Assembly (NCBI GenBank): GCA_052039025.1
Contig: JBQGDK010000144.1
Span: 1,069 to 65,068 of the forward strand
Direction: 5' to 3'
DNA length: 64,000 nucleotides
Source of the DNA: Actinomycetota bacterium
Lineage (GTDB): Bacteria; Actinomycetota; UBA4738; CALAEC01
The notes under the pieces were generated by a model, which did not search any database, was not told where the DNA came from, and saw only the letters and a program-made list of their open reading frames with translations. Both the position numbers and the translations under genes were made by a program. Shown here in pieces: positions 34,808-61,952 of this stretch (position 1 is the first letter of the stretch; the number at the start of each line of letters is the position of its first letter).

Positions 34808-37768
<2,961 letters not shown>

Positions 37769-37865
37769 GCCCCGCTCCTTGTCCCCGTGTTGGGGAAGCT
37801 CGCTACCACGCTCAGCCCGGCACCTCCTCGGCCTGTCTCCCGCCGTCCGACAGCCTGGTACCCTT

Positions 37866-37882
37866 ATACCCCTGTAGGGTAT
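37866..37882. promoter_or_regulatory. candidate CsoR operator: perfect inverted repeat ATACCC-CTGTA-GGGTAT in the copA/csoR divergent intergenic region
   Basis: atacccctgtagggtat lies between the copA start (37768, minus) and the csoR start (37920, plus); this matches the GC-rich pseudo-palindromes bound by CsoR family repressors. Confidence 0.5.
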
Positions 37883-37919
37883 CAGGGCGCGACATGCCGC
37901 GCTGTGGCAAGAAGCCTGG

Positions 37920-38228
37920 GTGAAGGAGGTACGAGGGGTGGCGCAACAGGCGAGGGGCTATTCGGCCACCAAGGACCAGCTCCTGGCTCGGCTCGGCAGG
38001 ATCGAGGGGCAGGTCCGGGGCGTGGCGAACATGGTCCGGGAGGACCGGTACTGCATCGACGTCGTGACCCAGATCAACGCGATCCGGGCGGCCATCGACA
38101 AGGTGGCACTCGGACTCGTGGACGATCACGTCCGTCATTGTCTGGTCGGGGGCCACGGCGGTCCCACCGACCCCAACGAGCAGGCTGCCGAGCTGATGGG
38201 TGCCGTGGGCCGGATGCTGTCGAGATAG
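37920..38228 (+). CDS. csoR: CsoR/RcnR family metal-sensing transcriptional repressor
   Basis: DUF156 fold with Cys/His/Cys ligands (RYCIDV...HVRHCLVGG). Confidence 0.8.
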
Positions 38229-39941: not shown

Positions 39942-42416
39942 TCAGCCCATCGGCTGGAGTGATCGCCCTTCGAGCCCCATGGGGGGACCGCCCTCTCCCT
40001 CGGCCTCCGGCAACCGGAGCCGCTTGAGGAGCAGGGCGTTCACAGCCACGAGCAGGCTGGACCCGGACATCGACAGCGCGGCGATCTCCGGCCGCAGCAC
40101 CAGGCCCAGGCTCGGCTCGAACACCCCCGCGGCGATCGGCAGGGCCACCCCGTTGTAGCCGATGGCCCACCCCAGGTTCTGTCGCATCTTCCGGAGGGTG
40201 CCGCGCCCGATGGCCAGCGCCTTGGGGATATCCAGGGGATCTGAGCGCATCAGCACCACGTCGGCGGTCTCGATGGCCACGTCGGTCCCCGCCCCGATGG
40301 CCACCCCCAGGTCCGCCTGAGCCAGCGAAGGAGCGTCGTTCACCCCGTCGCCCACCATGGCGACGTTCCGGCCTTGCCGCTGCAGCTCGGCCACCTTGCC
40401 GGCCTTGTCGCCCGGGAGGACCTCGGCGATGACCTCCTCGATCCCCAGGATCCCGGCGATCCGCCTGGCGGTGGCCTCATTGTCCCCGGTCAGCATGACC
40501 ATCTCGACCCCCGCGTCCCTCAGGGCCGCCACCGCGGCTCGGGACGTGGGGCGGGGGGCGTCGGCGATCCCGATCAGGGCCACGGCCCGCCCGTCGGCAG
40601 CCACCCACACCGCGGTCCGGCCGCCGGCGGCCAGGTCCGCCCGCCGTGCCTCCAGGGAACCGAGGCTAACCCCCTCCCTGGCCATGAGCCGGGTGTTCCC
40701 TACCGCGATGAGCCGGCCCTCCACCTCGGCCAGGGCCCCGTGGCCGGGAACGTTCTCGAACCCCTGGGCCCGAACGGCCGGGACACCCTGGGCCTCGGCG
40801 TGACGGACCAGGGCCTCGGCCAGGGGGTGCTCGGACTCCCGCTCCACCGCTGCCGCCAGCCGGAGGACCTCGGGCTGGGGGAGGCCATCGGTCACCACCT
40901 CGGTGACCTCGGGCTCCCCCTTCGTGAGCGTCCCGGTCTTGTCCATGACCACGGTGTCGATCCGAGCAGCCGACTCCAGGGCGATGGCGTTCTTGAACAG
41001 GATCCCCCGGGTGGCTCCCAGACCCGTGCCCACCATGATCGCCGTGGGAGTGGCCAGGCCCAGCGCGTCGGGGCAGGTGATGACCACCACGGTGATGGCG
41101 AACAGGATGGCCTCGGGGGCCGGCCGGCCCACCAGCAGCCAGGTCAGCAGCGTCCCCCCTCCGCCGATCAGAGCCACGAAGACCAACCAGAAGGCGGCCC
41201 GGTCCGCGAGCTTCTGCCCGGGAGCCTTGGAGTTCTGGGCCTCCTGGACCAGCTTCACGATCTGGGCCAGCGCCGTCTCCGAACCCACCTTGGTGGCCCG
41301 GGCCCGGAGCGTCCCGTTCGTGTTGATGGTGGCCCCGATGACCTCCGATCCCGGCTCCTTGTGCACCGGGAGGCTCTCCCCGGTGACCATGGACTCATCG
41401 ACCTCGCTCTCTCCTTCCTCCACGGTCCCGTCGACGGGGACCTTGGAGCCCGGCCGAATCAGCAGAAGGTCCCCCGCCTCCACCTCAGCGGTGGGGACCT
41501 CCACCGGCTCCCCGCCTCGGAGGACCACGGCCATCGGAGGAGCCAGGTCCAGGAGCTTCCGGATGGCGTCGTTGGCCCCGCCCCGGGCCCGCATCTCGAA
41601 CCAGTGGCCCAGCAGGACGAAGGCGGCCAGCACCGTGGCAGCCTCGTAGAACACCTCCCCGCCCCCGGTCAGCGTCACGACGACCGAGTAGACCCACCCC
41701 GACCCGATGGCCACGGCCACCAGGACCATCATGTCCAGGGTGCGGACGCGGAGAGCCCGCCACGCCCCGTCGAAGAAGATCCAGGAGGAGTAGAAGATCA
41801 CCGGGAGGCTGAGGAGGAGAGCGAACACGTCGTCGCGGAGCCCGAAGGGCGCCGGCACCTCGAACCCCAGGACCTCGCGGCCGATCGGCGACCACAGGAG
41901 GATGGGCACCGACAGGATCGCCGCCACCAGGAACCGGTTCCGCATGTCCCGGACCATGGCGTCCATCGACATGCCCGCGTGGCCGCCGTGGCCCATGACC
42001 TCCTCCGGGGCGCGCAGTCCCTCCTCCGGCGGGGCGTGCACGGCGTGCCCGGCGGGAGGCGCCTCCCCCGGTAGGGCCGGGTGAGCGGTTGGAGCGGGGT
42101 CCGGCTCCTCCATCGGATCGCAGATGTGGGTCGGGACCGACTGCCCGGCGCAGTGCATCCCGCACTCCTCCACCCACCGCCGCAGCTCCGCCAGAGAGGT
42201 GACCGACGTGTCGTAGGTGACGTTGGCGGTCTGGGCCACCGGGTTTGCCTCCACTTCCACCACCCCGGACCGCCGGCCGAGCGCGCTCTCGACTACGGCC
42301 TTCTCACTGGCCCGGTAGATCCCGCCGACGTGGAGGACAGCCGTGGCGGTCTTCCCCAGCCGGTGGTCCGCATGACGAGGCGGTTCGCCGCGGCTCGGCT
42401 CCCGGTCAGCGTTCAA
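39942..42416 (-). CDS. heavy-metal P1B-type ATPase with atypical CPD (not CPC) TM6 motif and Cys-less HMA-like N-terminus
   Basis: DKTGTLT, GDGVNDAP, ITCPDALGLATPTAIMVG; N-terminal LHVGGIYRASEKAVVESAL (HMA fold without CxxC); His-rich linker HAVHAPPEEGLRAPEEVMGHGGHAGMSMDAM. Confidence 0.8.
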   Translation of the reverse strand: MNADREPSRGEPPRHADHRLGKTATAVLHVGGIYRASEKAVVESALGRRSGVVEVEANPVAQTANVTYDTSVTSLAELRRWVEECGMHCAGQSVPTHICDPMEEPDPAPTAHPALPGEAPPAGHAVHAPPEEGLRAPEEVMGHGGHAGMSMDAMVRDMRNRFLVAAILSVPILLWSPIGREVLGFEVPAPFGLRDDVFALLLSLPVIFYSSWIFFDGAWRALRVRTLDMMVLVAVAIGSGWVYSVVVTLTGGGEVFYEAATVLAAFVLLGHWFEMRARGGANDAIRKLLDLAPPMAVVLRGGEPVEVPTAEVEAGDLLLIRPGSKVPVDGTVEEGESEVDESMVTGESLPVHKEPGSEVIGATINTNGTLRARATKVGSETALAQIVKLVQEAQNSKAPGQKLADRAAFWLVFVALIGGGGTLLTWLLVGRPAPEAILFAITVVVITCPDALGLATPTAIMVGTGLGATRGILFKNAIALESAARIDTVVMDKTGTLTKGEPEVTEVVTDGLPQPEVLRLAAAVERESEHPLAEALVRHAEAQGVPAVRAQGFENVPGHGALAEVEGRLIAVGNTRLMAREGVSLGSLEARRADLAAGGRTAVWVAADGRAVALIGIADAPRPTSRAAVAALRDAGVEMVMLTGDNEATARRIAGILGIEEVIAEVLPGDKAGKVAELQRQGRNVAMVGDGVNDAPSLAQADLGVAIGAGTDVAIETADVVLMRSDPLDIPKALAIGRGTLRKMRQNLGWAIGYNGVALPIAAGVFEPSLGLVLRPEIAALSMSGSSLLVAVNALLLKRLRLPEAEGEGGPPMGLEGRSLQPMG

Positions 42417-42493
42417 CGACTAGGACCTCCCATCCCGTCCTTCGTCCCGCTCTCCACATAGGGCGCTCCACACATCCGTTGCCGCCGGACTTC

Positions 42494-49250: not shown

Positions 49251-49856
49251 TCACGGGAGCGCCCGTCTGACCTCGGACAACAGACCGTCCGGGGAGACGA
49301 ACATGGATGGATAGTCGCCCCGCCAGCGGATGATCCCCTCCCCGTCGACAAGGATGAAGCTGTGCCCGGGAAGGTCGGCGTGGTGACCGGTTCCGAGCAC
49401 CCCGTAGGCAGCCGAGGTCCGCTTGGTCGCATCCGACAGGAAGGGCGTTCGGATCCCGAAGCGAGCGGCCTCCGAGGCCACCATCTCCGGAGGATTGGTG
49501 ACCACCGGAAGCACGGTCACGCCCACCCTTTCCAGGTGGTCGTCGTGCGCTTCGAGCTGAACCATCTGCGTGAAGCAGGAGTCACACCCGACGCCCTCGT
49601 TGAAGTACAGGAGGACGTTCCGTCCGCGATATCCCTCGAGGCTCTTGACGGTCCCGTCCGTCGCCGGGAGGGCGAACCTCGGAGCGACCTCCGATACGCG
49701 CTGGCCTGGCGCGGGTCGTTCCGCCCCAGCCATCCACATCAGCCCGATCAACGCGACGACGGCGCCAGTGCTGACCAGGGTCCCGGCGTGGCGGCGGATG
49801 AGCGATGGCTCAGCCGACCGGCGTCGCCGAAGGGCTCGGCTCTTCTTCGCTCGCAT
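49251..49856 (-). CDS. TlpA-like thiol:disulfide oxidoreductase (redoxin family), membrane-anchored
   Basis: TM anchor, then GCDSC (CxxC) in an AhpC/TSA-like fold; ATG 49856. Confidence 0.7.
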   Translation of the reverse strand: MRAKKSRALRRRRSAEPSLIRRHAGTLVSTGAVVALIGLMWMAGAERPAPGQRVSEVAPRFALPATDGTVKSLEGYRGRNVLLYFNEGVGCDSCFTQMVQLEAHDDHLERVGVTVLPVVTNPPEMVASEAARFGIRTPFLSDATKRTSAAYGVLGTGHHADLPGHSFILVDGEGIIRWRGDYPSMFVSPDGLLSEVRRALP

Positions 49857-50733
49857 GTCGAACCTCCTTCGTGGCCGGAGCGCTCCGACGCGACCACCGC
49901 CGGCCGATCCTCCAGATGACGACGGCGATGGCCAGCACCAGGAGACCGAGCACCGGCTCGGGGACGGACCGGGTGGCCCGAACGATCCCCCCGAAGATGC
50001 CCGAGAGGAACCGTCCGATCCCAAGCTGCGATCCGGGGGCCGCCATCGGGTTCCCGGACAGGGCCAGCCAGATCACCGCCGCGCCCATCGCCAGGAACAC
50101 CACCCCCGCGATGGCGTTCGTCGTGGTGGTGTGCAGGCGCCGACTCCCGAGCCACACCGTGAGAGGACGCCCCACGATGGGCCGTCGCTCTCCCAGCCGC
50201 AGCCGGTCCCACAAGAGCGCCAGGAGGAACAGCGGGAACACCATCCCGAAGACGTAGGCCAGCCCGAGCGCCACCGAGCCCGGCAGCGACCCGGCCAGCG
50301 CCGACAGCGTCATCACGCCGGCCAGGACCGGAGCGCAGCACGAGGACGCGACCCCGGAGAAGACCCCGAGGGCGAAGACTCCCGGAGCGTCGCCTCGGTC
50401 GAGCCGCGGGCTCCGCATGGGGATCCGCCACGAGCGGCCCCCCACGGCCAGCACGCCGAGCCCGATCATCATCGCCCCGCCGACCAGGTAGAGGGGCGTG
50501 TGGTACCGGGCCAGGGTCTCGGCGAGCAGACCCATCCCGAGCGTCAGCGGCAGGATCACCACGGCGAGGCCCGCCGCGAACACCACCGTGAGGGGGAACA
50601 GCGCCCATCTCCTGTCCTTCACCGCGGAGGCCAGATAGGCGGGGAACAGGAACACGATGCAACACGGGCTGAACAGCGCCACGGATCCGGCGAAGAACGC
50701 CGCCAGGATCGACCCGCCCAGGACGAGGGTCAC
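49810..50733 (-). CDS. ccdA: cytochrome c biogenesis protein CcdA (DsbD-like thiol-disulfide transporter)
   Basis: Polytopic, with two Cys-containing TMs (FSPCCIVF and ASSCCAPV). Confidence 0.75.
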   Translation of the reverse strand: MTLVLGGSILAAFFAGSVALFSPCCIVFLFPAYLASAVKDRRWALFPLTVVFAAGLAVVILPLTLGMGLLAETLARYHTPLYLVGGAMMIGLGVLAVGGRSWRIPMRSPRLDRGDAPGVFALGVFSGVASSCCAPVLAGVMTLSALAGSLPGSVALGLAYVFGMVFPLFLLALLWDRLRLGERRPIVGRPLTVWLGSRRLHTTTTNAIAGVVFLAMGAAVIWLALSGNPMAAPGSQLGIGRFLSGIFGGIVRATRSVPEPVLGLLVLAIAVVIWRIGRRWSRRSAPATKEVRHASEEEPSPSATPVG

Positions 50734-50987
50734 GGAACGACCCTCTCGAGCGTGCGTCGCAGCTTGCTCCGCGGAAGCCGACCCGCGCTGAAGAACTCGT
50801 CATCGAGCAGCACCAGGGGCTGCATGGCCACCCGGTGAGCGGCGATCAAGGACCGTCCTTCGGCGGTGGCGGCGTCGACGGCGGTCACCTCGAGGGGGAA
50901 CTCCGTGGCGAGCTCCTCGAGCACGGCCTCGGCGTTGCGGCACAGGTGGCACCCGGGTGCGGCAACCAGCGTGATCCGATGGTTCAT
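50730..50987 (-). CDS. glutaredoxin-like small thioredoxin-fold protein
   Basis: ITLVAAPGCHLCRNAEAVLEEL (CxxC in a Grx-like fold); ATGA overlap with ccdA. Confidence 0.6.
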   Translation of the reverse strand: MNHRITLVAAPGCHLCRNAEAVLEELATEFPLEVTAVDAATAEGRSLIAAHRVAMQPLVLLDDEFFSAGRLPRSKLRRTLERVVP

Positions 50988-51002: not shown

Positions 51003-52409
51003 CTATCGGTCCGCGGTGTGAAGGATCGGTGAAGAGGGCGTGGAGGCGGCCTGTGGGTCCGTGGCGGGGAGGCGCACGGCGAACTCCGAGCCGCGTCCCA
51101 CGCGGCTCCGAACCTCGATCCGCCCACCGTGGGCGGCGACGAGATCCTTCGCCACGGTGAGGCCGATCCCCGAGCCGCTCGCCCTCGCCCCCCGTCCTCG
51201 GAAGAAGCGGTCGAAGACCCGGGGGATCTCGTCCGCCGGGATGCCGGATCCCGTGTCCTCGACCCGAACCACGGCCTCCGATCCCTCGGTGGCGACGCCG
51301 AGGCGAACGACCCCACCCTGGGGTGTGAACTTGAGCGCGTTCGAGAGGAGGTTGCGGAGGACCTGCTCGAACCGCACCACGTCGACGTCCGCCTCCACCG
51401 GAGCCGGCGTGTCGATCCGGAGCTCCACACCGACCGCCTCGAACGGCCCCGCGAGCTCCACGGCGACGCCGCGCGCCAATGCCCCGAGCTCACTCCGGCG
51501 CGGGTCGAGGGTGAAGCCGGCGGCGTCGGCCGATGCCAGGGTCTCCAGATCCTCCACCAGCCTCGTCACCCGAAGGGTCTCCTCGTGCAGCGACGCCATC
51601 GCCGGAGCGTCTGCCTCCGTCACGCCATCCTGGATCGCCTCGACCTGGGAGCGCAGGATCGACAACGGGGTCCGGAGCTCGTGGGCGACCGAGGAGGCGA
51701 ACGACCGGCGGAGTCGGTCCTCCTCCGCCACCGCATCGGCCATCGAGTCGAAGGCTCGGGCCATGGTGCCGAACTCGTCTGGCCGGCCGCTGGCCAGCCT
51801 GACGTCCCGGTCACCGGAGGCCAGCGATCTCGCCGCCCGGGTCAGGGCCCGCGCGGGCGCGGTGGCCCTCCGGGCCAGGAACAGGCCCAGGGCCAGGGCC
51901 GAGAGCCCGGCCCCGATCCCCCCGAAGATCAGCAGGCGGTTAACCGAGGAGCGGAAGGCGCGGTCCTGGGCCAGGAGGCCGGGCTGGGGGAGACGGACGG
52001 CCGCGATGCCGACCACCGAGCCAGCGGACCGAACCGGGAGCCGTCGCTCGGGGCCCAGGGGACCGCTTCCCATCATCTCCCGATGCACCTCCGACATGTG
52101 GTGGGAGATGGCCTCGGAGCCGTCCCAGATCGTCCGCCCCCGCGGATCCTCGATCCGCAGGGTCCCGCCGTCCATCAGCACCAGGGACGCGAGGTCGTTG
52201 AGCTCGGCTGGGTCCCACCCGCCCCGAGCCCGGTACGAGTCGGCCAGCGTGGCCACCACTTGTCGCTGCCTGAGCTCCCGGCGATCCTCGAGGTACTCCG
52301 AGAACCTCGATCCGAAGGCGACGTTGACCAGCAGCGCGGTGAGCGCCGCGGCCAGGAACCCCACGCCGGCGAACGCGACGCCGAGTCGAAGGGCGAAGGA
52401 GCTACGCAT
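51003..52409 (-). CDS. sensor histidine kinase (2 TM, HAMP, HisKA, HATPase_c)
   Basis: H-box SVAHELRTPLSIL, N-box LLSNALKFT, G-boxes DTGSGI and GSGIGL. Confidence 0.85.
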   Translation of the reverse strand: MRSSFALRLGVAFAGVGFLAAALTALLVNVAFGSRFSEYLEDRRELRQRQVVATLADSYRARGGWDPAELNDLASLVLMDGGTLRIEDPRGRTIWDGSEAISHHMSEVHREMMGSGPLGPERRLPVRSAGSVVGIAAVRLPQPGLLAQDRAFRSSVNRLLIFGGIGAGLSALALGLFLARRATAPARALTRAARSLASGDRDVRLASGRPDEFGTMARAFDSMADAVAEEDRLRRSFASSVAHELRTPLSILRSQVEAIQDGVTEADAPAMASLHEETLRVTRLVEDLETLASADAAGFTLDPRRSELGALARGVAVELAGPFEAVGVELRIDTPAPVEADVDVVRFEQVLRNLLSNALKFTPQGGVVRLGVATEGSEAVVRVEDTGSGIPADEIPRVFDRFFRGRGARASGSGIGLTVAKDLVAAHGGRIEVRSRVGRGSEFAVRLPATDPQAASTPSSPILHTADR

Positions 52410-53100
52410 CTGCCTTCACCCCCAGCTTGTAGCCGACGCCAGTCACGGTGACGACGTACCGGGGGTGGCGGGGATCGTCGCGAAGCTTGCGACGAAGGTT
52501 CTTCACGTGGGCATCGATGGTCCGTTCGTAACCCTCGTAGTCGTAGCCCTGCACCCGCGTCACCAGCTCGTAGCGGGAGAACACGCGCCCGGGGTGCGAG
52601 GCCAGGGCAAACAGGAGGTCGTACTCGCTCCGCGTCAGGTCCACCACATCGCCTTCCCGGCTCACCTCCCGACCCTCCCGGTCGATCGTGAGGCGGCCGC
52701 CGTCGAAGGACGCGGGCGCTTCGACACGGTCCCCTCCGGCTCGGCGCAGGACGGCCTCCACCCTGGCCACCAGCTCCCGGGGGCTGAACGGCTTCACCAG
52801 GTAGTCGTCGGCGCCCAGACGCAGCCCCGCCACGCGGTCATCCTCCGAGCTCTTCGAGGTCAGCATCAGGATCGGCACGGCCGAGACCTCCCGGAGGGAC
52901 CGGGCCACCTCCTCCCCGTCCAGGTCCGGAAGCATCAGGTCCAGGACGACCAGGTCCGGTGAGGCCTTGCTCGCTGCTTCGATGGCCCGCTGCCCGGTGT
53001 CCGCCTCGAGCACCGCGTAGCCATCGCGCTCCAGATACTGCCGGACGACCTGCCGGATCTTGCGCTCGTCGTCGACCACGAGAACGGTGTGGCTACCCAC
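52402..53100 (-). CDS. OmpR-family response regulator
   Basis: Receiver VLVVDDE...DLVVLDLMLP plus winged helix; overlaps the kinase gene. Confidence 0.85.
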   Translation of the reverse strand: MGSHTVLVVDDERKIRQVVRQYLERDGYAVLEADTGQRAIEAASKASPDLVVLDLMLPDLDGEEVARSLREVSAVPILMLTSKSSEDDRVAGLRLGADDYLVKPFSPRELVARVEAVLRRAGGDRVEAPASFDGGRLTIDREGREVSREGDVVDLTRSEYDLLFALASHPGRVFSRYELVTRVQGYDYEGYERTIDAHVKNLRRKLRDDPRHPRYVVTVTGVGYKLGVKADA

Positions 53101-53325
53101 GTCGGCTTCCTCCCTCCCGCCGACGGCTCACCCCGACCACGAAGACGATCCGGCCGGCCACGACGAGCGCCACCGCCAACCCGACGAGGGACACCGCCAG
53201 CAGCACGGCGCCGCCCGCACCCCCGCCGTCGCCGAGCCTACGGACACTGGCCACGGTCCCCCCAGGAGGAACATCGCCCCGGCCACCGCCGCCCAGAAGA
53301 CGACAACGGTCATCCGCTGCACCGC

Positions 53326-53698
53326 TCACCCCTCCAGGTGTTCGGCGACCGGGGTAACGGCCGCGTAGACGATCAGGGCCAGGATGCCGACGGCCACCAG
53401 GGCCGCGGGAATCACCACCGCGAGGCGGCGGGTTCCCAGGCCCCGTGCCGGTCGCCGGCCTCGAACGCTTCGTCGGCCTCGCGGACCAGCTCCAGGTCGA
53501 CGACCTTCGTGTCCTCCGCCTCCTGAGCGTCGTGCAGCTTGTCCTCGATGGCCTCTCGCTGCTCGGGCTGGCCCCGGAGGAGCGCGATCGCCTGCTCGAC
53601 CAGGGTCTTGGCCGGCAGGTCCTTCTCCGGGTGGGCCAGCGCGGCGTTGCCGGGAGGACCACGATGCCCACCGCAATGATCCGCCGCAGGATCCTCAC
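53326..53698 (-). pseudogene. small gene region with probable frameshifts (signal/TM N-terminus; helical segment; C-terminal TM)
   Basis: Three frames carry MRILRRIIAVGIVVLP, then NAALAHPEKDLPAKTLVEQAIALLRGQPEQREAIEDKLHDAQEAEDTKVVDLELVREADEAFEAGDRHGAWEPAASRW, then RRLAVVIPAALVAVGILALIVYAAV. No single intact ORF. Confidence 0.25.
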
Positions 53699-53699
53699 C

Positions 53700-54008
53700 T
53701 CACACGCTCCTCACGTACCGACGGACCGCCTCCAGGAGCTCCGCCGCCTTGGCCTCCCCCTCCCCGCCCCCGATCGCCTCGCGCACGCAACCGTGGACGT
53801 GGTCCTCGAGGACGAGGAGCGCTGCGGCCTCGAGACCAGCCCTGGCGGCCGAGAGCTGGTCCAGGACGTCGATGCAGTACCGTCCCTCCTCGTACATCCG
53901 CCTGATCCCCGCGACCTGTCCCTCGATCCGGTGCAGGCGGTCCGCCACCGTCTTCCCCAGGCTGTGTCGTGGGAGCTCCTGCTTCGCCACGGTCAGCTCC
54001 CTGTTCAC
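53700..54008 (-). CDS. csoR: CsoR/RcnR family metal-sensing repressor (second copy)
   Basis: VNRELTVAKQELPRHSLGKTVADRLHRIEGQVAGIRRMYEEGRYCIDVLDQ...HVHGCVREA; GTG 54008 after a ggtggaggtgg RBS; the N-terminal part of the track ORF is spurious. Confidence 0.75.
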   Translation of the reverse strand: MNRELTVAKQELPRHSLGKTVADRLHRIEGQVAGIRRMYEEGRYCIDVLDQLSAARAGLEAAALLVLEDHVHGCVREAIGGGEGEAKAAELLEAVRRYVRSV

Positions 54009-54634
54009 GTTGCCACCTCCACCTCGCTCGGTTTCAACAGGCTCAGCTTCTCCGCCAGGGAGAGCAGCTCCAGGACCGGATCGTGGAGCCGCGCCCCTGC
54101 CAGCATCGACCCGGGCTCCCGGATCCGTCGGATCACGGCCTCGGCACAGTGACGGAGGGGAACGGTGAGGCTCGCCCCGTGCGCGGATCCGCCCCGCCCG
54201 GCGAAGGCCACCACCCTGACCTCGCACGGGAGGGCGCCGGGCATCTCCATCGCCCCGCGGCCCCGGCGGCCGATCGCCTCGGCCTCCCGCTCCACCATCG
54301 CTTCGGGGCAGCACCCCACGCGCCGCAGGGCGAGCTCGATGCTCCGCCTCCGACGCAGACCGGGGTTGAGGTGCGCCGCCCCCTCCTTCACCTCGCCGAT
54401 CAGCACGTCGACCGCGCTCTCCGGCGTCCCAAGGTGCGGATCCGTCCCTACGAACGCCTCGGTCGTCCGCTCGAGAATGGCATCGGGAGGGCGAGGGAAC
54501 CGCACGGCGATGATGTCGACGTCGGTGACGTCCCGGTAGCCGTGTCGTTCCTCCTCGCGGACCGGCAGCTCGGCCAGGACGAAGTACCCCTGGAGCTCGA
54601 GGTAGGCTTTCACCAGCCCGACCGCCGCGTCCAT
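54005..54634 (-). CDS. hypothetical protein, possible PD-(D/E)xK nuclease-like fold
   Basis: MDAAVGLVKAYLELQGYFVLAELPV...DVTDVDIIAV...LIGEVKEG (D...E.K pattern); start overlaps the ABC stop and its stop overlaps the csoR start. Confidence 0.35.
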   Translation of the reverse strand: MDAAVGLVKAYLELQGYFVLAELPVREEERHGYRDVTDVDIIAVRFPRPPDAILERTTEAFVGTDPHLGTPESAVDVLIGEVKEGAAHLNPGLRRRRSIELALRRVGCCPEAMVEREAEAIGRRGRGAMEMPGALPCEVRVVAFAGRGGSAHGASLTVPLRHCAEAVIRRIREPGSMLAGARLHDPVLELLSLAEKLSLLKPSEVEVAT

Positions 54635-54635
54635 C

Positions 54636-55478
54636 TCAGCTCCCCACCACCGCCGGACGCTCGATGAACCGCTCCGGCCGGCCGGCGAACTCCTCACGGC
54701 ACGCCGGCGAGCAGAAGAAGAAGGTCTGCCCGTCGTAGCGGAAGTGCGGTGCTCCCTCCCGGTCCACGGCCATACCGCAGACCGGATCGGTGGCCATCTC
54801 GCTCACCGACCGGAACTCCCCGTCCTCGAGCCAGAGGACCCGGTCGGCGATGTCCTCGAGGCGGGTGTCGTGGCTGACGATGACCACGCTGCGGCCCTCC
54901 TCGTCGGCGGCGCGCCTGAGCAGCCGGGCGATCTCGTGCCCGATCTTGGAGTCGAGGTTGGCGGTGGGCTCATCGGCGAGGATGACCGCCGGCTCGTTGG
55001 CGATGGCCCGGGCGATCGCCACCCGTTGTTTCTCGCCGCCAGAGAGCTTGGAGGGACGGAAATCGAGCCGCTCGCCCAGCCCGAACTCCGAGAGCAGCCC
55101 GGTGGCCCGGTCACGGGCCCGACGCCCCGAGACTCCCGCCAGGTTGAGGGCGAACTCCACGTTCTCCCGAGCAGTGAGGGCGGTGAGCAGGTTGAAGTCC
55201 TGGAACACGAAGCCGAACCGCCGCGCCCGGAACTCCGGCAGGCGGCGCTCAGGCAGGGCGGCCAGGTCCACCCCGTCCACTTCGACCCGCCCCGCGCTCG
55301 GCCGCAGCATCGCCCCGAGCATGGACAGGAGCGTGGTCTTCCCGCTCCCCGAAGGACCCATGATCAGGACCACCTCGCCGCGGCGCACCTCCAGGTCCAC
55401 GTCCCGGACCGCGCGCACCTGCACCTCGCCCTCCCCGTATACCTTCTCGAGCTTCTCGGCCTTGACGGCGATCTCGTT
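54636..55478 (-). CDS. ABC transporter ATP-binding protein (MacB/LolD-like) with C-terminal YHS/TRASH metal-binding domain
   Basis: Walker A GPSGSGKTT, LSGGEKQRVAIARA, ILADEPT; C-terminal DPVCGMAVDREGAPHFRYDGQTFFFCSPACREEF. Confidence 0.8.
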   Translation of the reverse strand, partial: NEIAVKAEKLEKVYGEGEVQVRAVRDVDLEVRRGEVVLIMGPSGSGKTTLLSMLGAMLRPSAGRVEVDGVDLAALPERRLPEFRARRFGFVFQDFNLLTALTARENVEFALNLAGVSGRRARDRATGLLSEFGLGERLDFRPSKLSGGEKQRVAIARAIANEPAVILADEPTANLDSKIGHEIARLLRRAADEEGRSVVIVSHDTRLEDIADRVLWLEDGEFRSVSEMATDPVCGMAVDREGAPHFRYDGQTFFFCSPACREEFAGRPERFIERPAVVGS

Positions 55479-56575
55479 CATCCCTGCCTCCGGAAGACCG
55501 TCGCGGGGTCCACCCGCGACACCTTGATCAGTGGGGCCACGGCCCCCACCGCGCCCAGGAGCGCCGCCCCGATCGCCGCGCGAACCACCGACCCCCACTC
55601 GACGAGCAGCGGGAAAGAGGCCCCGGTGCGCTCGACCACCCAGCCCAGCCCTACCGCTGCGAGCCAGCCGATGCCCAGGGCGAGGCCCACCGTCCACACG
55701 GCCTGGGCCAGGACGACACGCGCGAGCCGGCGCGAGGTGGCCCCCAGCGCCTTCATCACTCCGATCTCGAGGAGGCGGGACAGCGTGGCCGCGTAGAGGG
55801 TGAGCCCGATCACGGCGAGCCCGATGAGGAACGCGGCGAACGTCATGATCTGCATGAGGTCGGCACTCATGTCCTCGATCCCTTGCCGCTCCTCGGCGGA
55901 GAACTGGGCCCGGGTCTGAACGGTGAGCCCAGTGGCGGCCTCGATCTGGCTCGCCACGCCGGCCTTGGCTCCCACTAGCAGGTAGCTGGTCGCATCCGGC
56001 ACGCCCCTGGCCGCGGCGAAGTCATCGAACGGCACGTACGAAACGCTGTTGACGATGTTGGTCATTTCGGTGGTCACCCCGGACACTCGCCAGGAGCGAT
56101 CGAGGATCCGGACCTCGTCGCCGAGGCCGACGCCGAGCGTGGATGCGGCGTCCTCGTCGAGAACGATCTGGCCGGGGCCGGGTTCGGTCCCCGAGGCGAA
56201 GCCGACGGGGCCGCCCCTCCGGCCGGGGACGTATCCGATGATGTAGGTGAGCTGGCGCTTCCCGGCCGCCAGGACCGCTCCCGTGTCGTACAGGATCGGG
56301 TCGGCCCACCCGACGCCGGGGATCGCCCGGACCTCCTCGAGCGAGGACGCAGGGATGGTGGAGGACGACATGTGCATCGTCCTCACCCCTCGTTGGGAGA
56401 CGAACAGGTCGGCGCCTGAGGTGTCGATGTACCTGGTCACCTCGCGCATCGCGCCGGCGAAGATGCCGTCGAGGGCGAGCACCAGCAGGAGCGCGGCGCC
56501 GACCCCGGCCACCCCCAGCACGGCTCTCCGACGCTCCGAGAAGAGGTTCCGTCGCCCGACCGGCACGCTCCTCAT
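55478..56575 (-). CDS. ABC transporter permease, FtsX/MacB-like
   Basis: N-terminal TM, large periplasmic domain, three C-terminal TMs (FtsX pattern). Confidence 0.7.
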   Translation of the reverse strand: MRSVPVGRRNLFSERRRAVLGVAGVGAALLLVLALDGIFAGAMREVTRYIDTSGADLFVSQRGVRTMHMSSSTIPASSLEEVRAIPGVGWADPILYDTGAVLAAGKRQLTYIIGYVPGRRGGPVGFASGTEPGPGQIVLDEDAASTLGVGLGDEVRILDRSWRVSGVTTEMTNIVNSVSYVPFDDFAAARGVPDATSYLLVGAKAGVASQIEAATGLTVQTRAQFSAEERQGIEDMSADLMQIMTFAAFLIGLAVIGLTLYAATLSRLLEIGVMKALGATSRRLARVVLAQAVWTVGLALGIGWLAAVGLGWVVERTGASFPLLVEWGSVVRAAIGAALLGAVGAVAPLIKVSRVDPATVFRRQG

Positions 56576-56582
56576 CGCCCTA

Positions 56583-57692
56583 TCACCCCCGGTACACCGT
56601 GGCCGGGTCCAGGCGGGCGACCCGGCGGGTGGGAAGGACCGCGGCCAGGACCGCCATCACCCCAGCGGCGACAAGAGCTCCCACGAGCGCTCCCGGGGAC
56701 ATCCGGACCCACATCTGGGGCCTCACCACACCGACCAGCCACGACGCGCCCCAGAACAGCCCGAACGCCACAACGGCGGCTACCCCGGCGATGATCAGGG
56801 TCTGCCCGAGCACGATGCCGAACAGCCGTCCCCAGCGCGCTCCCATCGCCTTGGCGATCCCGTACTCACGGATCCGCTCCACGATCGCCGAGTACACCGT
56901 CAGGGCGATGATCAGGGTTCCAGCAGCGAAGGCGATCGCGAGCATCAAGCCGATCGCCCCGTTCATGATGCGGCCGAGCAGGGCCCGGTCGTTGTCCCCG
57001 AGCTCTTGCGGGGTGAGGACGGCAAGTCCCGTACGTTCCCGGATCCGCTGGGCCGCGACGCCGGAATCGTCCGCCTGCACCAGGACGTAGCTGGTGGTGC
57101 CGGGCATCAGCAGCAGCTGCTCGATGGCCGAGTGCGTCGTGAACACGAACCCGGCCATCCACGAGCGGGTCCCACCCGACATGCCGACGACCCGGAAGGG
57201 TGCGCCCATGACCTCGACCGTGTCTCCTATGGCGATCGAGTGCTGCTCGGCGACCGTCTGATCGATGACCACCTCGTCGTTCGCGCGTACCGCCCGGCCA
57301 GCCGCCATCTCCCAGGGGCCGCCCATCTCGCCCCGGAGCGATCCCACCAGGAACACGAACACCTTTCGGTCGTGGAGGTCGAGTACGGCGAAGCGAACCG
57401 CGATCGGATCCGCCCGGTCCACCCCGGGGACCGCGCGGATGGCGTCCACCGAATCCATGGGGATGACCGAGGGGACGCCGAGGAAGTTCTCGGTGCCCCG
57501 CTCCCCGACGAACAGATCCGCGCCCACGTTGTCCTCATAGGCCGAGACCTGGACGCGGAACCCGCTCCAGAGACCCTGGAGGAGGAGGATCAGAGCGAGG
57601 GCCGCCGCCACCCCGAGCACGCTCGTGAACAGCCGGCGCTTGTCGGCCGCCACGTTCCTCCGGCTGACGGGAACACCTCTGCCCAAGACCAT
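56583..57692 (-). CDS. ABC transporter permease, FtsX/MacB-like (second)
   Basis: Paralogous topology; start chosen at MVLGRGVPVSRRNVAADKRRLF (ATG 57692), which aligns with the N-terminus of the partner permease. Confidence 0.65.
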   Translation of the reverse strand: MVLGRGVPVSRRNVAADKRRLFTSVLGVAAALALILLLQGLWSGFRVQVSAYEDNVGADLFVGERGTENFLGVPSVIPMDSVDAIRAVPGVDRADPIAVRFAVLDLHDRKVFVFLVGSLRGEMGGPWEMAAGRAVRANDEVVIDQTVAEQHSIAIGDTVEVMGAPFRVVGMSGGTRSWMAGFVFTTHSAIEQLLLMPGTTSYVLVQADDSGVAAQRIRERTGLAVLTPQELGDNDRALLGRIMNGAIGLMLAIAFAAGTLIIALTVYSAIVERIREYGIAKAMGARWGRLFGIVLGQTLIIAGVAAVVAFGLFWGASWLVGVVRPQMWVRMSPGALVGALVAAGVMAVLAAVLPTRRVARLDPATVYRG

Positions 57693-57950
57693 CACCTCGG
57701 GGACTATGCCCTCGGGGGGTACGGTACGGTCGCCACCTGGCCGGTTCATGGGCCGGACGGCCCAGCGTTTCTGGGACGCTCGGCCCCCTGGCCGGAAGCT
57801 GCTGGCGCGACGAAGGCGCTCGCCCGACTCCAGGGAACATGATCGACCGAGCCACCGTGAGGGGCAGGCCGTGGCAGCTATGTTCATGGCGCATCGAATC
57901 ACCACACGCTTGACGGCGATCGTTCAGAAACCCATGAGCCTCGAGGAGAG

Positions 57951-58436
57951 GTGATGGGAGCGGATCCGGGCTCGTTGTCGTGGACGGGTGGCGCTGCTGC
58001 ACTCCTAGCAGCGGCGACCCTTCTCGCCGGGATCGGGGGTCTTGCCACCCGCTCCTCCGGGCTGCGCCCATGGCTCGCCGTGCTGTTCGGCATCAACGCC
58101 GGAGCGGGCGATGTGTCCCCCGACACGTTGAGAGCGATCAAGCCGATCGACATCCTGCTGCTTTCCCTCGCAGGCGTCACCTTCATCGGCTTTCGGCCGG
58201 GACCCGGCACCCGTCAGGTGCCGTGGATTCCTGGCGATCGCCCTGCCATTCGCCGGCATCGTGATCCTGCTGGCCACACGCCTTGGGGGTCGCTCGGGTC
58301 TGAAGGGGGCGCCCTTGTGCTCTCCATCCTCATGCTTGTCAGCGATGCATGGACCGGCTTGGGATACGTGGGGATCGCTGCGAGCGTTCTGCTCCTCGTC
58401 GGGACCTCGGGACAAGCGGACGTCGGTCCCGAGTGA
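57951..58436 (+). CDS. hypothetical membrane protein (possibly frameshifted; alternative frame 58190..58515 is also TM-like)
   Basis: Hydrophobic segments in two overlapping frames; unresolved. Confidence 0.25.
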   Translation: MMGADPGSLSWTGGAAALLAAATLLAGIGGLATRSSGLRPWLAVLFGINAGAGDVSPDTLRAIKPIDILLLSLAGVTFIGFRPGPGTRQVPWIPGDRPAIRRHRDPAGHTPWGSLGSEGGALVLSILMLVSDAWTGLGYVGIAASVLLLVGTSGQADVGPE

Positions 58437-58596
58437 TGCGACCCTCGTCGCAACCGGCTACGTAGCGCTGATCGGCTGGTTACTCTGGATCGCGGCACGG
58501 CTGCTCGTCCCGTGACCAGCGGACTCGCGTGTCAGCACGGACCATTCGCACCGGCTCGCGGCGGCCTTCATCGAGCCTGAATGAGCACATGACCAG

Positions 58597-58634
58597 AGCA
58601 TTTCCGTGGGCGGGGACTCGAACCACCGACCGGC
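58597..58634 (-). repeat. tRNA 3'-end-like element copy D (degenerate; 2-nt deletion in T-arm)
   Basis: gtgggcggggactcgaaccaccgaccggcggatcatgag is homologous to copies A-C but cannot form a T-stem. Confidence 0.5.
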
Positions 58635-58960
58635 GGATCATGAGTCTTACGGCCTCCCGGGCTGCCCCGTCCGTCTGGCGACGCCTCGTGCCGTCCTGTC
58701 CAGGTCGGGAGCTTCTCCTGGGGACGTACGTGCCATCCGTGTTGTCCTGTGCCGTCCCGTTCGGTAGCACGGCGGGTAGCGGCGCCCCCTGCCGCCGAGG
58801 TCCCGGGGGCTCGCCGTGCGGGCACGGGTTCTAGGGTCATAAGAGGGAACTCCAGATCCTATTCCCAGCATTTCGTTGGAGGCTCCTCCAACGTCTACAT
58901 CAACGTGCGACGAAGACGTTCACCGACGCTCCATCCATGGAAGCGCGTCGTGATAGGCCT

Positions 58961-59337
58961 TCACCAGGAAGAGCCGCCACTCGCCGGCGATGCCCTTAGC
59001 TCGTGGCCTCCACGGTCTTCCAGCTCGACGCCAGACCCGACGACGAGATCCTTCACAGTGCTCGAGACGAGGGTCTCCCGGGGCCAACGAGAGCCGCGGT
59101 TCGGGCGGCGACGTGCACGGCGATCCCCCGGGTGCCTCCGTCTACCACCTCGCATTCTCCTGTGTGGAGCCCGACCCGAACCTGGATACCCAGAGTTCCG
59201 ATGGCTTCATGGATCGCCGCCGCGCAGCGGATGGCCTCGCCCCGGACCGTCAATGGTGGATACACCCCACAGGACTCAGTGAAGCCGACGCTCGACCTTG
59301 AAGCGGCCCGGTACCTTCTCGTCTGCAACCTGCCCAA
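58961..59337 (-). pseudogene. class III adenylate/guanylate cyclase catalytic-domain relic (frameshifted fragment)
   Basis: ...IQVRVGLHTGECEVVDGGTRGIAVHVAARTAAL... and ...ETLVSSTVKDLVVGSGVELEDRGGHELRA... sit in two frames; there is no N-terminal part. Confidence 0.5.
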
Positions 59338-59431
59338 GCATTCGAGCAGGGGATGTGGGCAGAGGTCCAGGTCACCTGAACCGGACTCTAGGGACGCGGG
59401 AGGCTCATGCCGGCCACACAGGTCGACCGTC

Positions 59432-60021
59432 TTACTCGACGAGCAGCCCTTCCTTCATCCCGGCCTGGTAGTGCCCAGTGATGAAGCAGCCCATCTCCCA
59501 TGTACCGATTGCGTTGGCCGGGACCGTCAGGCGCAAGGTTACGGCGGCACCAGGTGCAACCTCGATGCTGACGCCGCCTGGTTCCCCGGCGCCTTCTTCT
59601 GGCTCCAATACCCGGTATCCCGTGCCGCTCATGACCTCCGGCTCCATCATCGCCAACAGATCATCCTCATAGCCCCCGCCGGGGTGGAGGGTTCGGCCGA
59701 CCCTCCACTCGTGCACGATGTGCCCATCGTTCCGGAGCGTGACGAGGACCGGACTACCGGCCGGCAGTGGTTCAAAGGTCGGTGCGGGGTAACCCGGGGG
59801 CGGAGGGGGGGCCTCCGGGGCGAAGCTGAACTCGTTCATCAGAACGATCTGCGGCTCCGCCGCCGGCGATTCCACCTGCTCGGTCTCTTCTGCCCGGCTC
59901 GCCGCCGGTTCGGGGCCAGCAGGTTGGCAGCTAGCGCCCAGCACCGCCAACAGCGCGGCCACCCCGATCAGAAAGGCAGCTCTGGCCCACCAGTCTCCGG
60001 TGCCCCATCCCCATGTGGGCA
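59432..60021 (-). CDS. cupredoxin-like copper-binding lipoprotein/secreted protein
   Basis: Signal MPTWGWGTGDWWARAAFLIGVAALLAVLGASC; Pro-rich linker; type-1 Cu ligands HEW...GCFITGHYQAGM. Confidence 0.65.
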
Positions 60022-60426
60022 TGGCACCATAGTAACGGTCCCATGGTGGGGAGACTCGGACGTCGCGGTGGTCCTCGTTCCTGGTCGGCCCGCCGACCGC
60101 TTGTCCGCTGGTTGGCGTCCTGCCGACGGTCTGGATCCCGGGGGCCTCGCGACCGCGCTCACAGGACCGCCTTCGAGTGTTCAGCCAGCCCGTGGTTCGT
60201 CGCCTGGGCCGGGCTAAGGAGAGCCCGGAGGAGCAAGAGGGACCTTCGACCCCTCGGAGCGGGCCGGTGGGCCTGCCCCCCCGGGCGGCCGGGGACGTCG
60301 ATCCTGAGCCCTGAGCGGGGCAGGCGGCGGCCGCCCGGAGAGGAGGACGGGGAGCGGACCGGAATTTGTGCGGATCGACGAGTCGGTACAAACTGGATGG
60401 AGGCTGCCCGACCGAGAGGGGGAGAG

Positions 60427-60888
60427 ATGCGCACACGGACACGTCAGGCCGTGCTGCTGGCGGCTGTGGCCGCGGTGGCCCTGGTGGCGGGTGCCTGTGG
60501 CGGGGAGGAACCTGCCGAGGAGCCGCCCGCGGCGGAGAAGCCCGCCGAGGAGGCCGAGGAGGAGGGCCACGAGGAGGAAGCGGTCGAGGTCCCCCCTGAC
60601 GCCCAGCACATGGAGGTTGTCGGGACCGAGTTCGCTTTCGATCCCGCAGAGTTCACGGTGGAGGGCGGGATCCCCGTGGCGGTGACGTTCCACAACGAAG
60701 GTGAGGTGGACCACGACTGGGCCCTGCGCACCGCCGACGGCGAGGAGGTCGAGGACGCCCACGTACACGCGGTGCCGGGCGAGGAGACCGTGGCCGTCTT
60801 CACCCTGGAACCGGGGACGTACGAGGCGTGGTGCACACTCGCGGGGCACTACGAGGCCGGCATGAAGGGCGAGGTCGTCGCCGAGTAG
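60427..60888 (+). CDS. cupredoxin-like copper-binding lipoprotein
   Basis: MRTRTRQAVLLAAVAAVALVAGACGG (lipobox-like), Glu-rich linker, HDW...AWCTLAGHYEAGM; ATG 60427 after gagagggggagag. Confidence 0.7.
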   Translation: MRTRTRQAVLLAAVAAVALVAGACGGEEPAEEPPAAEKPAEEAEEEGHEEEAVEVPPDAQHMEVVGTEFAFDPAEFTVEGGIPVAVTFHNEGEVDHDWALRTADGEEVEDAHVHAVPGEETVAVFTLEPGTYEAWCTLAGHYEAGMKGEVVAE

Positions 60889-60917
60889 CCCGCGCGTCCG
60901 CTCGTGAGGAGGGACAG

Positions 60918-61952
60918 ATGAGACGCAGCCTTGTATCCCTGGCCGCGGGGCTGCTCGTCACGACCGCGTGCACGGGGAAGACCGGGACGGGCCAGGAGCA
61001 GGCGTCGGCCCAAACACCCGAACCGGCGACCGGGACGGACATCCGCACGCCCCCGGACATCCTGCCGGAACCGGTAGGGGACCGTCCGGCGAAGCGGGTG
61101 GTGCTGGAGCTGGAGACGCGGGAGGTCGAGGGGCAGCTTGCCGAGGGGACCACGTACGATTACTGGACCTTCGGCGGCACCGTCCCCGGCCCCATGCTCC
61201 GCGTTCGCGTGGACGACACCGTGGAGTTCCACCTGTCGAACAGCCTCGACAGCGGCCAGTCGCACTCCATCGACCTCCACGCCGTGAACGGACCGGGGGG
61301 CGGCGCCGTGGCCACCCAGGTGCCCCCCGGCGAGGAGGGGACGTTCACGTTCAAGGCCCTGAACCCCGGCCTCTACGTGTACCACTGCGCCACCCCGCAC
61401 ATCCCCAGCCACGTGGCGAACGGCATGTACGGCCTGATCCTGGTGGAGCCGGAGGGCGGCCTGGACCCGGTCGACCGGGAGTTCTACGTGATGCAGGGGG
61501 AGATCTACACGGAGCAGGAGCGCGGGACGGAGGGGCACGTGGGCTACGACGCCGAGGCTATGATGGCGGAGGATCCCACCTACGTGGTGTGGAACGGCGC
61601 GTTCCAGGGGCTCACGGAGGACCTGGCCCTCACCGCCGAGGTCGGCGACCGGATCCGCCTGTTCGTCGGCAACGGAGGGCCCAACCTGATCTCGTCCTTC
61701 CACGTGATCGGGGAGATTTTCGACGCGGTCTATCCCGAGGGCGCCTCCGAGCCCCAGCACAACGTCCAGACCACCCTGGTCCCGGCCGGCGGGGCCACCT
61801 GGGTGGAGTTCACGGTCGACGTGCCGGGGCGGTACCTGCTGGTGGACCACGCGCTCACGCGCACCCTAGACGGCGGAGCGGTCGCGTACCTCGACGTGGA
61901 AGGGCCCGAGAATCCCGACGTGTTCGAGGCCCCGCAGGGGGAAGGCGCCTGA
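60918..61952 (+). CDS. nirK: copper-containing nitrite reductase (NirK-type two-domain multicopper oxidase)
   Basis: HSIDLHA (type-2 Cu His), YVYHCATPH...HVANGMYGLILVEP (type-1 Cu Cys/His/Met); lipoprotein signal LLVTTAC; 344 aa. Confidence 0.75.
   Translation: MRRSLVSLAAGLLVTTACTGKTGTGQEQASAQTPEPATGTDIRTPPDILPEPVGDRPAKRVVLELETREVEGQLAEGTTYDYWTFGGTVPGPMLRVRVDDTVEFHLSNSLDSGQSHSIDLHAVNGPGGGAVATQVPPGEEGTFTFKALNPGLYVYHCATPHIPSHVANGMYGLILVEPEGGLDPVDREFYVMQGEIYTEQERGTEGHVGYDAEAMMAEDPTYVVWNGAFQGLTEDLALTAEVGDRIRLFVGNGGPNLISSFHVIGEIFDAVYPEGASEPQHNVQTTLVPAGGATWVEFTVDVPGRYLLVDHALTRTLDGGAVAYLDVEGPENPDVFEAPQGEGA

Follow-up and report, generated by a model that had tools for sequence, protein, structure and literature searches.

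We analysed a 64,000-nucleotide stretch of DNA from an Actinomycetota bacterium (contig JBQGDK010000144.1), referred to here in its whole length as the window, and focus on a five-gene operon at 53700-57692. The operon encodes two FtsX-like permeases, FtsX1 and FtsX2, an ATP-binding cassette (ABC) ATPase that ends in a YHS/TRASH domain (ABC·YHS), a protein that we call P209, and a repressor, CsoR2. The first three genes, hereafter the trio, recur across bacterial phyla beside copper genes and may specify a membrane machine that responds to copper and acts on it. The operon and the site in front of it comprise the following features:

56583-57692, minus strand: FtsX1, 369 amino acids (aa), a type VII ABC permease with four transmembrane (TM) helices and a MacB-type extracytoplasmic domain
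55478-56575, minus strand: FtsX2, 365 aa, a permease paralogous to FtsX1
54636-55481, minus strand: ABC·YHS, 281 aa, a LolD/MacB/DevA-type ABC ATPase with a C-terminal YHS domain
54663-54791, minus strand: YHS/TRASH domain of the ATPase, residues 231-273
54005-54634, minus strand: P209, 209 aa, from a family without a Pfam or NCBIfam match
53700-54008, minus strand: CsoR2, 102 aa, GTG start, a CsoR/RicR-family repressor
57707-57721, upstream of FtsX1: operator-like inverted repeat of the CsoR/RicR type, TACCC-N5-GGGTA with one mismatch

All five co-oriented genes of the original prediction are thus present. They had been described as overlapping, which is true of FtsX2/ABC·YHS (ATGA) and P209/CsoR2 (GTGA), whereas FtsX1 and FtsX2 are separated by 7 nt and ABC·YHS and P209 by 1 nt. 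The window's composition puts the GC content of the host DNA at ~71%, and the third-position GC of 0.85-0.90 in the three of five frames that pass the coding filter is as expected for coding DNA of that composition. For FtsX2 we prefer a start 18 residues upstream of the public gene call (P0241, 347 aa), because its orthologues measure 365-370 aa. Promoter and terminator consensus scans gave nothing useful in 71% GC DNA, and no Rfam family or tRNA was found in 52000-61000.

Pfam bears out the order of a MacB-type ATPase preceded by two FtsX-like permeases: FtsX1 matches MacB_PCD (8.7e-15) and FtsX (1.9e-14), FtsX2 matches FtsX (8.8e-13) and MacB_PCD (6.3e-12), and the ATPase matches ABC_tran (1.6e-34). 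CsoR2, identified by Trns_repr_metal (PF02583, 2.1e-25), closes the operon and is, as had been predicted, the second CsoR of the window, the first lying at 37941-38228.

The distinguishing feature of the trio is the tail of its ATPase. The YHS profile (PF04945) matches residues 231-273 at 5.4e-11 and 42.8 bits, against a gathering cut-off of 30.3, and a weaker TRASH_HVO_1752_C match covers the same residues; with a score above the curated threshold, the concern that the proposed YHS similarity might be spurious falls away. Separated from the ATPase core by a linker of ~8 residues, the domain has the ligand pattern D232-x2-C235-x21-C257-x3-C261, which conforms to the (D/C)-x2-C...C-x3-C set. 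Across 52 orthologues, C235, M237 and C257 are conserved at 100%, C261 at 98% and D232 at no less than 90%. The Walker A, Q-loop, signature, Walker B and H-loop motifs are conserved in the same 52 proteins, and by these motifs the enzyme qualifies as a catalytically competent LolD/MacB-type ABC ATPase. PF04945 is precomputed on all 120 best ATPase homologues and D232, C235, M237, C257 and C261 are invariant or nearly so, on which sequence evidence we regard the fusion of ABC and YHS as fixed. When a representative library was searched with the C-terminal 86 residues of the ATPase, fragments and multi-YHS proteins dominated the result, and the count is a rough one: 585 matches at E<=1e-10, with ~60 of the best 150 spanning the ATPase-YHS junction. 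In L029, L031 and L034 (loci are cited by these numbers where they must be told apart), Chloroflexota orthologues either bear two YHS domains in tandem, as in the 367-aa ATPase of L031, or have another YHS stretch immediately behind the ATPase.

The two permeases are ~33% identical and form separate orthologue series across loci, with FtsX1 orthologues in the first position of the trio in >40 loci. The solved chains closest to FtsX1 (5xu1_M, YtrF and MacB) are all distant, and the closest solved sequence to FtsX2 is HrtB (7w78_B), which aligns end to end at E 1.2e-6 and 22% identity. The AF2 model of FtsX2 (pLDDT 83) places long helices at 15-46 and 222-266 on either side of a beta-rich domain; Foldseek returns MacB, LolE/LolC, HrtB, Spr0695 and YbbP at E 3e-17 to 1e-12, with MacB, LolE, HrtB and Spr0695 between 3e-17 and 1e-14, and the best TM-scores, 0.61-0.65, are to Spr0695 and HrtB. 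Judged by sequence and by predicted fold, the permeases are of type VII (MacB/LolCE/HrtB-like). The ATPase, whose closest solved chains are MJ0796, MacB and LolD, has the LolD equivalog TIGR02211 as its second-best NCBIfam match, at 213.6 bits against a cut-off of 307.75, and scores 203 bits against 265 for the FtsE equivalog; the permeases score 17-18 bits against 362 for lolCE (TIGR02212), and neither they nor the ATPase reach the cut-off of any NCBIfam equivalog. Given this, the distance of the solved relatives and the fold matches, we place the trio in a separate subfamily within the type VII ABC systems.

Described type VII systems (MacB, LolCDE, HrtBA, Spr0694-0695, YbbAP) share with the trio a permease of four TM helices, the first two of which are separated by a large extracytoplasmic domain, and an ATPase of the LolD/MacB/MJ0796 type. 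In sequence, their solved members resemble the trio only marginally (E 1e-6 to 1e-4, at most 22% identity), and we found none of the described families to have a metal-binding domain on the ATPase. LolCDE also combines two paralogous permeases with one ATPase gene, but the trio falls below the lolCE and LolD cut-offs. HrtBA (7w78), a Gram-positive detoxification pump that expels a toxic metal compound, heme, from the outer leaflet, is closest in sequence to FtsX2. In a low-confidence alignment, D235/M236 of FtsX2 lie beside the heme-ligating E219 of HrtB at the top of TM2, while the Glu itself is not conserved in FtsX2. HrtB is, moreover, a homodimer, its ATPase has no sensor tail and it is regulated by heme sensors and not by CsoR.

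We surveyed the distribution of the trio in one genome per species, which returned 79 loci. Wherever the match reaches the YHS tail and upstream DNA exists, the order is always that of two permease genes followed by the ATPase: the conserved unit is the trio FtsX-FtsX-ABC·YHS, and the five-gene unit is composite. The full five-gene order occurs in the window, in L082 and, as far as its short contig extends, in L169, with the same position and overlap of CsoR2 in the latter two; L170 has ABC·YHS-P209 and no CsoR, L003 and L052 have a CsoR directly after the ATPase and no P209, and most trio loci have neither. The co-conservation expected of all five genes thus holds strongly for the trio, but the five-gene order is confined to three loci and is therefore a trait of one narrow lineage. 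CsoR is a local regulator in the window's lineage only.

Carriers of the trio include uncultured Actinomycetota, which are also the nearest relatives, many Chloroflexota, a Thermoleophilia metagenome-assembled genome, Woeseiaceae and other Gammaproteobacteria, and Silicimonas. A tblastn search of plasmids with FtsX2 gave two distant matches only. Plasmid pRWAY03 of Rhodococcus sp. WAY2 (L168, NZ_CP046575.1 140669-155757) carries one FtsX permease with an ABC·YHS whose ATPase is 50% identical and is annotated in RefSeq only as 'ATP-binding cassette domain-containing protein'. Two lgt genes flank this copy, accompanied by a GNAT gene, DUF6153, DUF305, CbtA/CbtB and TlpA-CcdA-ResB-CcsB; being in a cultured organism, it is a possible experimental entry point.

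The neighbourhood of the trio makes a strong case, by gene content, for a link to copper. Within 8 kb of the 31 well-flanked loci (>=4 kb on each side), CopA is found in 20, a cupredoxin in 15, Lgt in 11, Lit in 4 and any copper marker in 25. When the predicted genes of 59 trio loci were clustered, CopA-type P1B ATPases appeared in 25 loci, and the typical string runs from CopA through a small membrane-anchored cupredoxin to FtsX-FtsX-ABC·YHS; in five loci an HMA-type protein lies immediately upstream of the trio. Other recurrent neighbours, besides cupredoxins, are CcdA/DsbD-type, thioredoxin-like and PCYCGC proteins, Lgt, Lit and OmpR-type two-component pairs (histidine kinases in 13/58 loci, response regulators in 10/58). 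Pfam was also run without preselection on the 150 genes closest to the trio. The 25 commonest families of that scan are headed by three generic haloacid-dehalogenase models that match the same ATPases, followed by E1-E2_ATPase (13), HMA (10), Peptidase_M23 (8), Cupredoxin_1 (8), LysM (7), Lit (5), YHS (5) and LGT (4). FTR1, P19, DUF2318 and HlyD-type families are absent from these 25.

The same data bear on the view that the trio has no copper function and is a generic MacB-type exporter of peptides, lipids or drugs that travels with metal islands, its YHS domain being a structural zinc ribbon. The closest solved relatives do handle peptides, heme or lipids, six of the 31 well-flanked loci have no copper marker, and purely structural TRASH-type domains exist, as in ribosomal protein L24e (PMC4626032). 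Still, the union of ABC and YHS and the ligand residues of the tail are constant across phyla, the surroundings show a huge enrichment of copper genes and CsoR-type boxes head operons, and we rate this view as improbable.

The Lgt and Lit neighbours raise a second alternative, a Lol-like handler working in the outer leaflet, where it would extract or reposition diacyl N-termini loaded with copper, or a lipoprotein that binds copper, with the YHS domain reporting cytoplasmic copper. The LolCDE layout, the rank of LolD among the NCBIfam matches of the ATPase, the presence of LolE/LolC among the best folds, the Lgt and Lit counts given above and the lgt genes around the pRWAY03 copy are all in keeping with it, as are the copper-induced lit2-lgt2 operons and the copper binding by diacyl lipoprotein N-termini that PMC8275575 describes. 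The lolCE scores, however, are far below the cut-off, no LolA-like partner was seen and the window's operon contains neither Lgt nor Lit; the carriers of the trio, moreover, are probably for the most part single-membrane organisms with no outer membrane as a lipoprotein destination. We consider a Lol-like role distinctly unlikely. As an observation in its own right, the extra Lgt and Lit copies near the trio echo the published copper-induced lit2-lgt2 operon of Listeria and Enterococcus.

Cell-wall enzymes form another set of neighbours. In L010, L011 and L016, the gene directly behind ABC·YHS, in the same orientation, encodes a LysM-M23 peptidase, and in L024 and L038 such a gene lies close by; this group of Chloroflexota loci often also has a YkuD-type L,D-transpeptidase, a PCYCGC protein and, further on, a cupredoxin, and resembles the pairing of FtsEX-type systems with cell-wall enzymes. 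FtsEX-type control of partners with M23/LytM domains is established, and the high rank of Peptidase_M23 and LysM among the 150 neighbours could likewise point to an FtsEX-like transmitter, in which ATP hydrolysis set by copper would control an outside enzyme (M23 peptidase or L,D-transpeptidase) and nothing would be moved. M23 neighbours are, however, restricted to one Chloroflexota group, with none in the window or in Actinomycetota loci, and the ATPase scores below the FtsE cut-off, so that such a transmitter appears very improbable.

Regulation by copper, which the original prediction had placed under CsoR, is supported by the neighbourhood and by a CsoR-type box upstream of the operon. The best NCBIfam match of CsoR2 is RicR, at 80 bits and under an exception-level cut-off of 175. 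Its translation places C45, H70 and C74 at spacings of 25 and 4 residues, with Y44 before the first Cys. The Cu(I) ligands of Mycobacterium tuberculosis CsoR are C36, H61 and C65, and by its sequence CsoR2 carries this Cys-His-Cys Cu(I) fingerprint with the same spacing. The RicR/CsoR operator pattern is TACCC-N5-GGGTA, a motif that is supported here by a perfect copy at csoR1/copA1. The box at 57707-57721 reads TACCCCCCGAGGGCA on the minus strand, with one mismatch and 14 nt to the ATG of FtsX1; boxes with at most one mismatch number four in the window against 0.56 expected. The sole perfect one, TACCCCTGTAGGGTA at 37867-37881, lies upstream of csoR1 and within the 5' end of the maximal copA1 frame, so the true copA1 start is probably further downstream. 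L082, at 78% DNA identity, has a similar box in the same place, and its alignment with the window begins at 57725, just outside the box, from which we take the conserved block to begin with the putative operator. Elsewhere, boxes stand 30-85 nt upstream of the CopA gene that heads CopA-cupredoxin-...-trio strings (L004, L005, where the box is perfect, L013 and L052). Taken together, the Cys-His-Cys spacing of CsoR2 and the box make derepression of the operon by copper excess likely.

The remaining one-mismatch boxes of the window are at 14461-14475 and 32388-32402. The latter falls where a Phosphodiest-like gene (32381-34006) meets a gene for an ArsP_1 permease (31299-32624), on the downstream side of copA1; these two genes also occur together beside the trio in L170.

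Actinobacterial CsoR/RicR operons resemble the window's operon in having a C-H-C repressor and an upstream repeat of the TACCC-N5-GGGTA type. The known CsoR/RicR regulons comprise P-type ATPases, chaperones, metallothionein and oxidases and, to our knowledge and within the reach of our searches, no MacB-type ABC system. Our literature searches on YHS/TRASH with ABC/FtsX, on CsoR with FtsX and on copper with FtsX-like proteins found no description of such a system, and the RefSeq plasmid homologue is annotated only generically, which agrees with the earlier statement that this is not a described copper system.

By composition, the nearest described analogue is the fetABCDEF cluster beside FetMP of Campylobacter jejuni, with a closely similar set of components: two permeases (fetB/fetC), an ATPase (fetD), a YHS domain on FetA and the thioredoxin-like FetE/F (PMC10783030). 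The window likewise encodes redoxin, glutaredoxin-like and CcdA-like proteins, at 49251-50987, and both loci are tied to a metal system that involves copper. In contrast to the trio, with its YHS on the ATPase and its copper setting, Fet has its YHS domain on a separate 8-TM DUF2318 protein predicted to be periplasmic, and its genes function in the uptake of iron and are induced when iron is scarce (PMC10783030). Two candidate identities were dropped: a FetBCD orthologue in an iron-uptake cluster, since neither the window region nor the 25 commonest neighbour families include FTR1, P19 or DUF2318, and a MacAB-TolC-type pump, since the operon encodes neither a MacA/HlyD adaptor nor an outer-membrane duct and those 25 families of the 150 neighbours include no HlyD-type family.

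For the tail itself, the closest precedent is the adenylyl cyclase of Mycobacterium phlei, whose C-terminal YHS domain renders the dimeric enzyme copper-activated (PMC4626032). The likeness extends to the ~8-residue linker, the dimeric catalytic domain and the ligand pattern D-x2-C-x21/22-C-x3-C, although the cyclase is a class III cyclase and not an ABC ATPase, and copper was shown there to activate the enzyme without direct copper binding being shown (PMC4626032).

How these parts might work together depends on what type VII systems do. MacB, LolCDE, HrtBA, FtsEX, BceAB and YbbAP act on extracytoplasmic or outer-leaflet substrates, and we know of no characterised type VII member that moves a substrate across the membrane from the cytoplasm. 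The 'copper-sensing exporter' of the original prediction therefore keeps its copper link and its MacB-type ABC, whereas 'exporter', with permeases of type VII, needs qualifying. In a true transmembrane Cu(I) exporter, the YHS tail would take up cytoplasmic Cu(I) and feed it into an ATP-driven path between the permeases. The YHS and HMA domains of CopA-type pumps are likewise cytoplasmic, an HMA protein stands directly upstream of the trio in the five loci mentioned above, CsoR control implies a response to copper excess, and conserved Met residues at or near TM2 and TM4 (FtsX1 M250 and M346; FtsX2 M236 and M244) could line such a path. Yet the fold is that of a class whose characterised members carry nothing across from the cytoplasm, the conserved Met cluster lies at the outer end of TM2 and is not spread along the helices, and a second cytoplasmic exporter would be redundant because CopA is next door in most loci. 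A transmembrane exporter therefore strikes us as unlikely.

We instead favour, at roughly even odds (probability about 0.5), a copper-induced type VII ABC mechanotransducer with an ATPase gated by copper at its YHS tail, acting on copper outside the cytoplasm. What the analysis establishes is the domain content, the conservation of residues, the synteny and the operator-like sites. We prefer this reading because the class works on the outer side, whereas its YHS tail is on the cytoplasmic side, and because the operon has the look of one induced by copper and adjoins CopA. The tail is more likely a sensor or gate than a point of substrate entry because the class acts outside, without carrying a cytoplasmic substrate. 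The copper binding, gating, substrate and direction that we infer for the trio would then combine as follows:

(i) The complex would consist of an FtsX1/FtsX2 heterodimer and two copies of the ATPase, with their YHS/TRASH tails in the cytoplasm.

(ii) At low copper, CsoR2, and perhaps CsoR1, would sit on the box overlapping the promoter or 5' region and keep the operon repressed, until Cu(I) at the Cys-His-Cys site frees the repressor from the box.

(iii) Cu(I), possibly delivered by an HMA-type chaperone, would bind the Asp/Cys3 site of the YHS tails, and the copper-loaded tails would switch on the ATPase dimer or promote its closure, for which the YHS domain of the M. phlei cyclase is the precedent.

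(iv) ATP-driven motion would be relayed along the long stalk helices of TM1/TM2 to the domains outside the cytoplasm, which would remove or hand on copper set free at the outer face by the neighbouring CopA. The copper may be handled as free Cu(I), in complex with the N-termini of lipoproteins or on membrane-anchored cupredoxins.

A more specific version, which we put forward tentatively and hold to be possible though doubtful, makes the trio the single-membrane counterpart of Cus and similar systems that clear copper from the periplasm: it would sense cytoplasmic Cu(I) through the YHS domain and, after export by CopA, strip Cu(I) from the outer face by mechanotransmission, lipoprotein N-termini and anchored cupredoxins being among the places from which it is taken.

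Several points weigh against the copper-gated mechanotransducer. By analogy, a YHS/TRASH domain may be occupied by structural zinc or be metal-free, the precedent for the latter being the YHS of toluene-4-monooxygenase (PMC4626032). The case for an extracytoplasmic copper site is thin, as the conserved His and Met residues that sequence comparison finds in these domains are few: H68-M69 in FtsX2, an MHM motif that is invariant in Actinomycetota, and the candidate ligands H107, H151 and M250 of FtsX1, with D235/M236 and M244 of FtsX2 conserved at the top of TM2. CopA is missing from the surrounding 8 kb in about one third of the well-flanked loci, and the LysM-M23 peptidase as the next gene in one Chloroflexota group points to another type of partner. 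The total of boxes over all loci, nine in ~1 Mb, is about the chance level, so only the positions of boxes upstream of CopA and of operons carry weight, and the box at 57707-57721 has a mismatch and is unusually close to the start codon. Lastly, the source organism is uncultured.

P209 follows the trio in few genomes and has a distribution of its own. It has no Pfam match even at E 10 and no NCBIfam match, and the database holds 241 homologues. Across 54 sequences there is no variation at E13, E22, D38, E81-V-K83 and C163 and hardly any at C108, C109 and C137, a pattern that fits a PD-(D/E)xK core plus a four-Cys site. The AF2 model (pLDDT 83.5) has an order of helices and strands compatible with the alpha-beta-beta-beta-alpha-beta core of PD-(D/E)xK proteins, but comparison with PDB folds gave no significant match (best 3fov, E 0.02; restriction enzymes and AddAB at E>1 only). 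The PD-(D/E)xK-like motif ascribed to P209 at the outset fits the invariant E13, D38 and E81-x-K83, and P209 is a candidate member of that nuclease superfamily.

P209 lies near or beside the trio in six loci (the window, L082, L169, L170, L083 and L039). Among the 58 metagenome loci of P209 homologues with at least four genes, 25 contain CopA, often directly upstream. An LDcluster4 (SLOG) protein, a methyltransferase of the ICMT type and a P-loop protein of 224 aa also turn up repeatedly as partners. On this genomic evidence, P209 is a separate accessory protein family of copper islands, often encoded directly after CopA. The pairing with LDcluster4 (SLOG/LOG-like, PF18306) was seen in L129, L132, L135, L139 and L143, where the partner has an N-terminal YHS/TRASH domain, and also in L083, L085 and L094; in L132, L135 and L143 the pair stands right behind a YHS-bearing CopA. 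It looks like a two-gene copper-island module, and the P209 family with its LDcluster4-YHS partners constitutes a second unstudied component of copper islands.

The remainder of the window has the character of a copper island. Besides cupredoxins and a multicopper-oxidase-like protein, it encodes:

34808-37957, minus strand: P1B ATPase 1 (copA1), of unusual domain make-up, with Cupredoxin_1 (residues 91-185), HMA, ATPase core and C-terminal YHS; 1049 aa in the longest frame
37941-38228: CsoR1, the first CsoR of the window
39942-42419: P1B ATPase 2, part of the window's copper island
52402-53100, minus strand: OmpR-type response regulator, co-oriented and 3' of a decayed stretch
51003-52409, minus strand: HAMP histidine kinase, co-oriented with the regulator

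Downstream of the operon, the two-component pair is followed by the redoxin group at 49251-50987 that was compared with Fet above. It is uncertain whether the pair (51003-53100) belongs to the same operon as the trio. Between them, at 53100-53698 on the minus strand, the window is ~1.2 kb shorter than L082: relative to that locus, the gene for a 164-aa secreted protein after csoR2 is cut off at ~53434, a cytochrome b gene is reduced to its final 34 codons (53329-53430), and the gene for a 73-aa membrane protein after this remnant is frameshifted. With its truncated, residual and frameshifted genes, the stretch from csoR2 to the response regulator is therefore gene debris. On the other side, over a stretch of ~1.5-1.7 kb that lies upstream of the operon (57900-59430), the GC content drops to 0.655-0.67 against 0.71 and synteny with L082 ends; this segment contains no Pfam-recognisable open reading frame and no Rfam or tRNA match.

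Cytoplasmic copper export by CopA is well understood, and single-membrane bacteria are without Cus-type systems. The fate of Cu(I) on the outer face of their membrane is not understood, and the trio is a concrete, testable candidate for that step. If the proposed role is correct, a metal ion would be a new class of substrate for type VII ABC transporters, and gating of the ATPase by the exported metal would be a new regulatory principle for them; the trio would be without precedent among type VII ABC systems in having a ligand-sensing domain on its ATPase and would make a useful model of how mechanotransducers are switched, and P209 would be a further component of copper islands. Members of the family abound in Actinomycetota and Chloroflexota of soil and groundwater, and one is carried by a Rhodococcus plasmid, so that the family may matter for environmental metal resistance.

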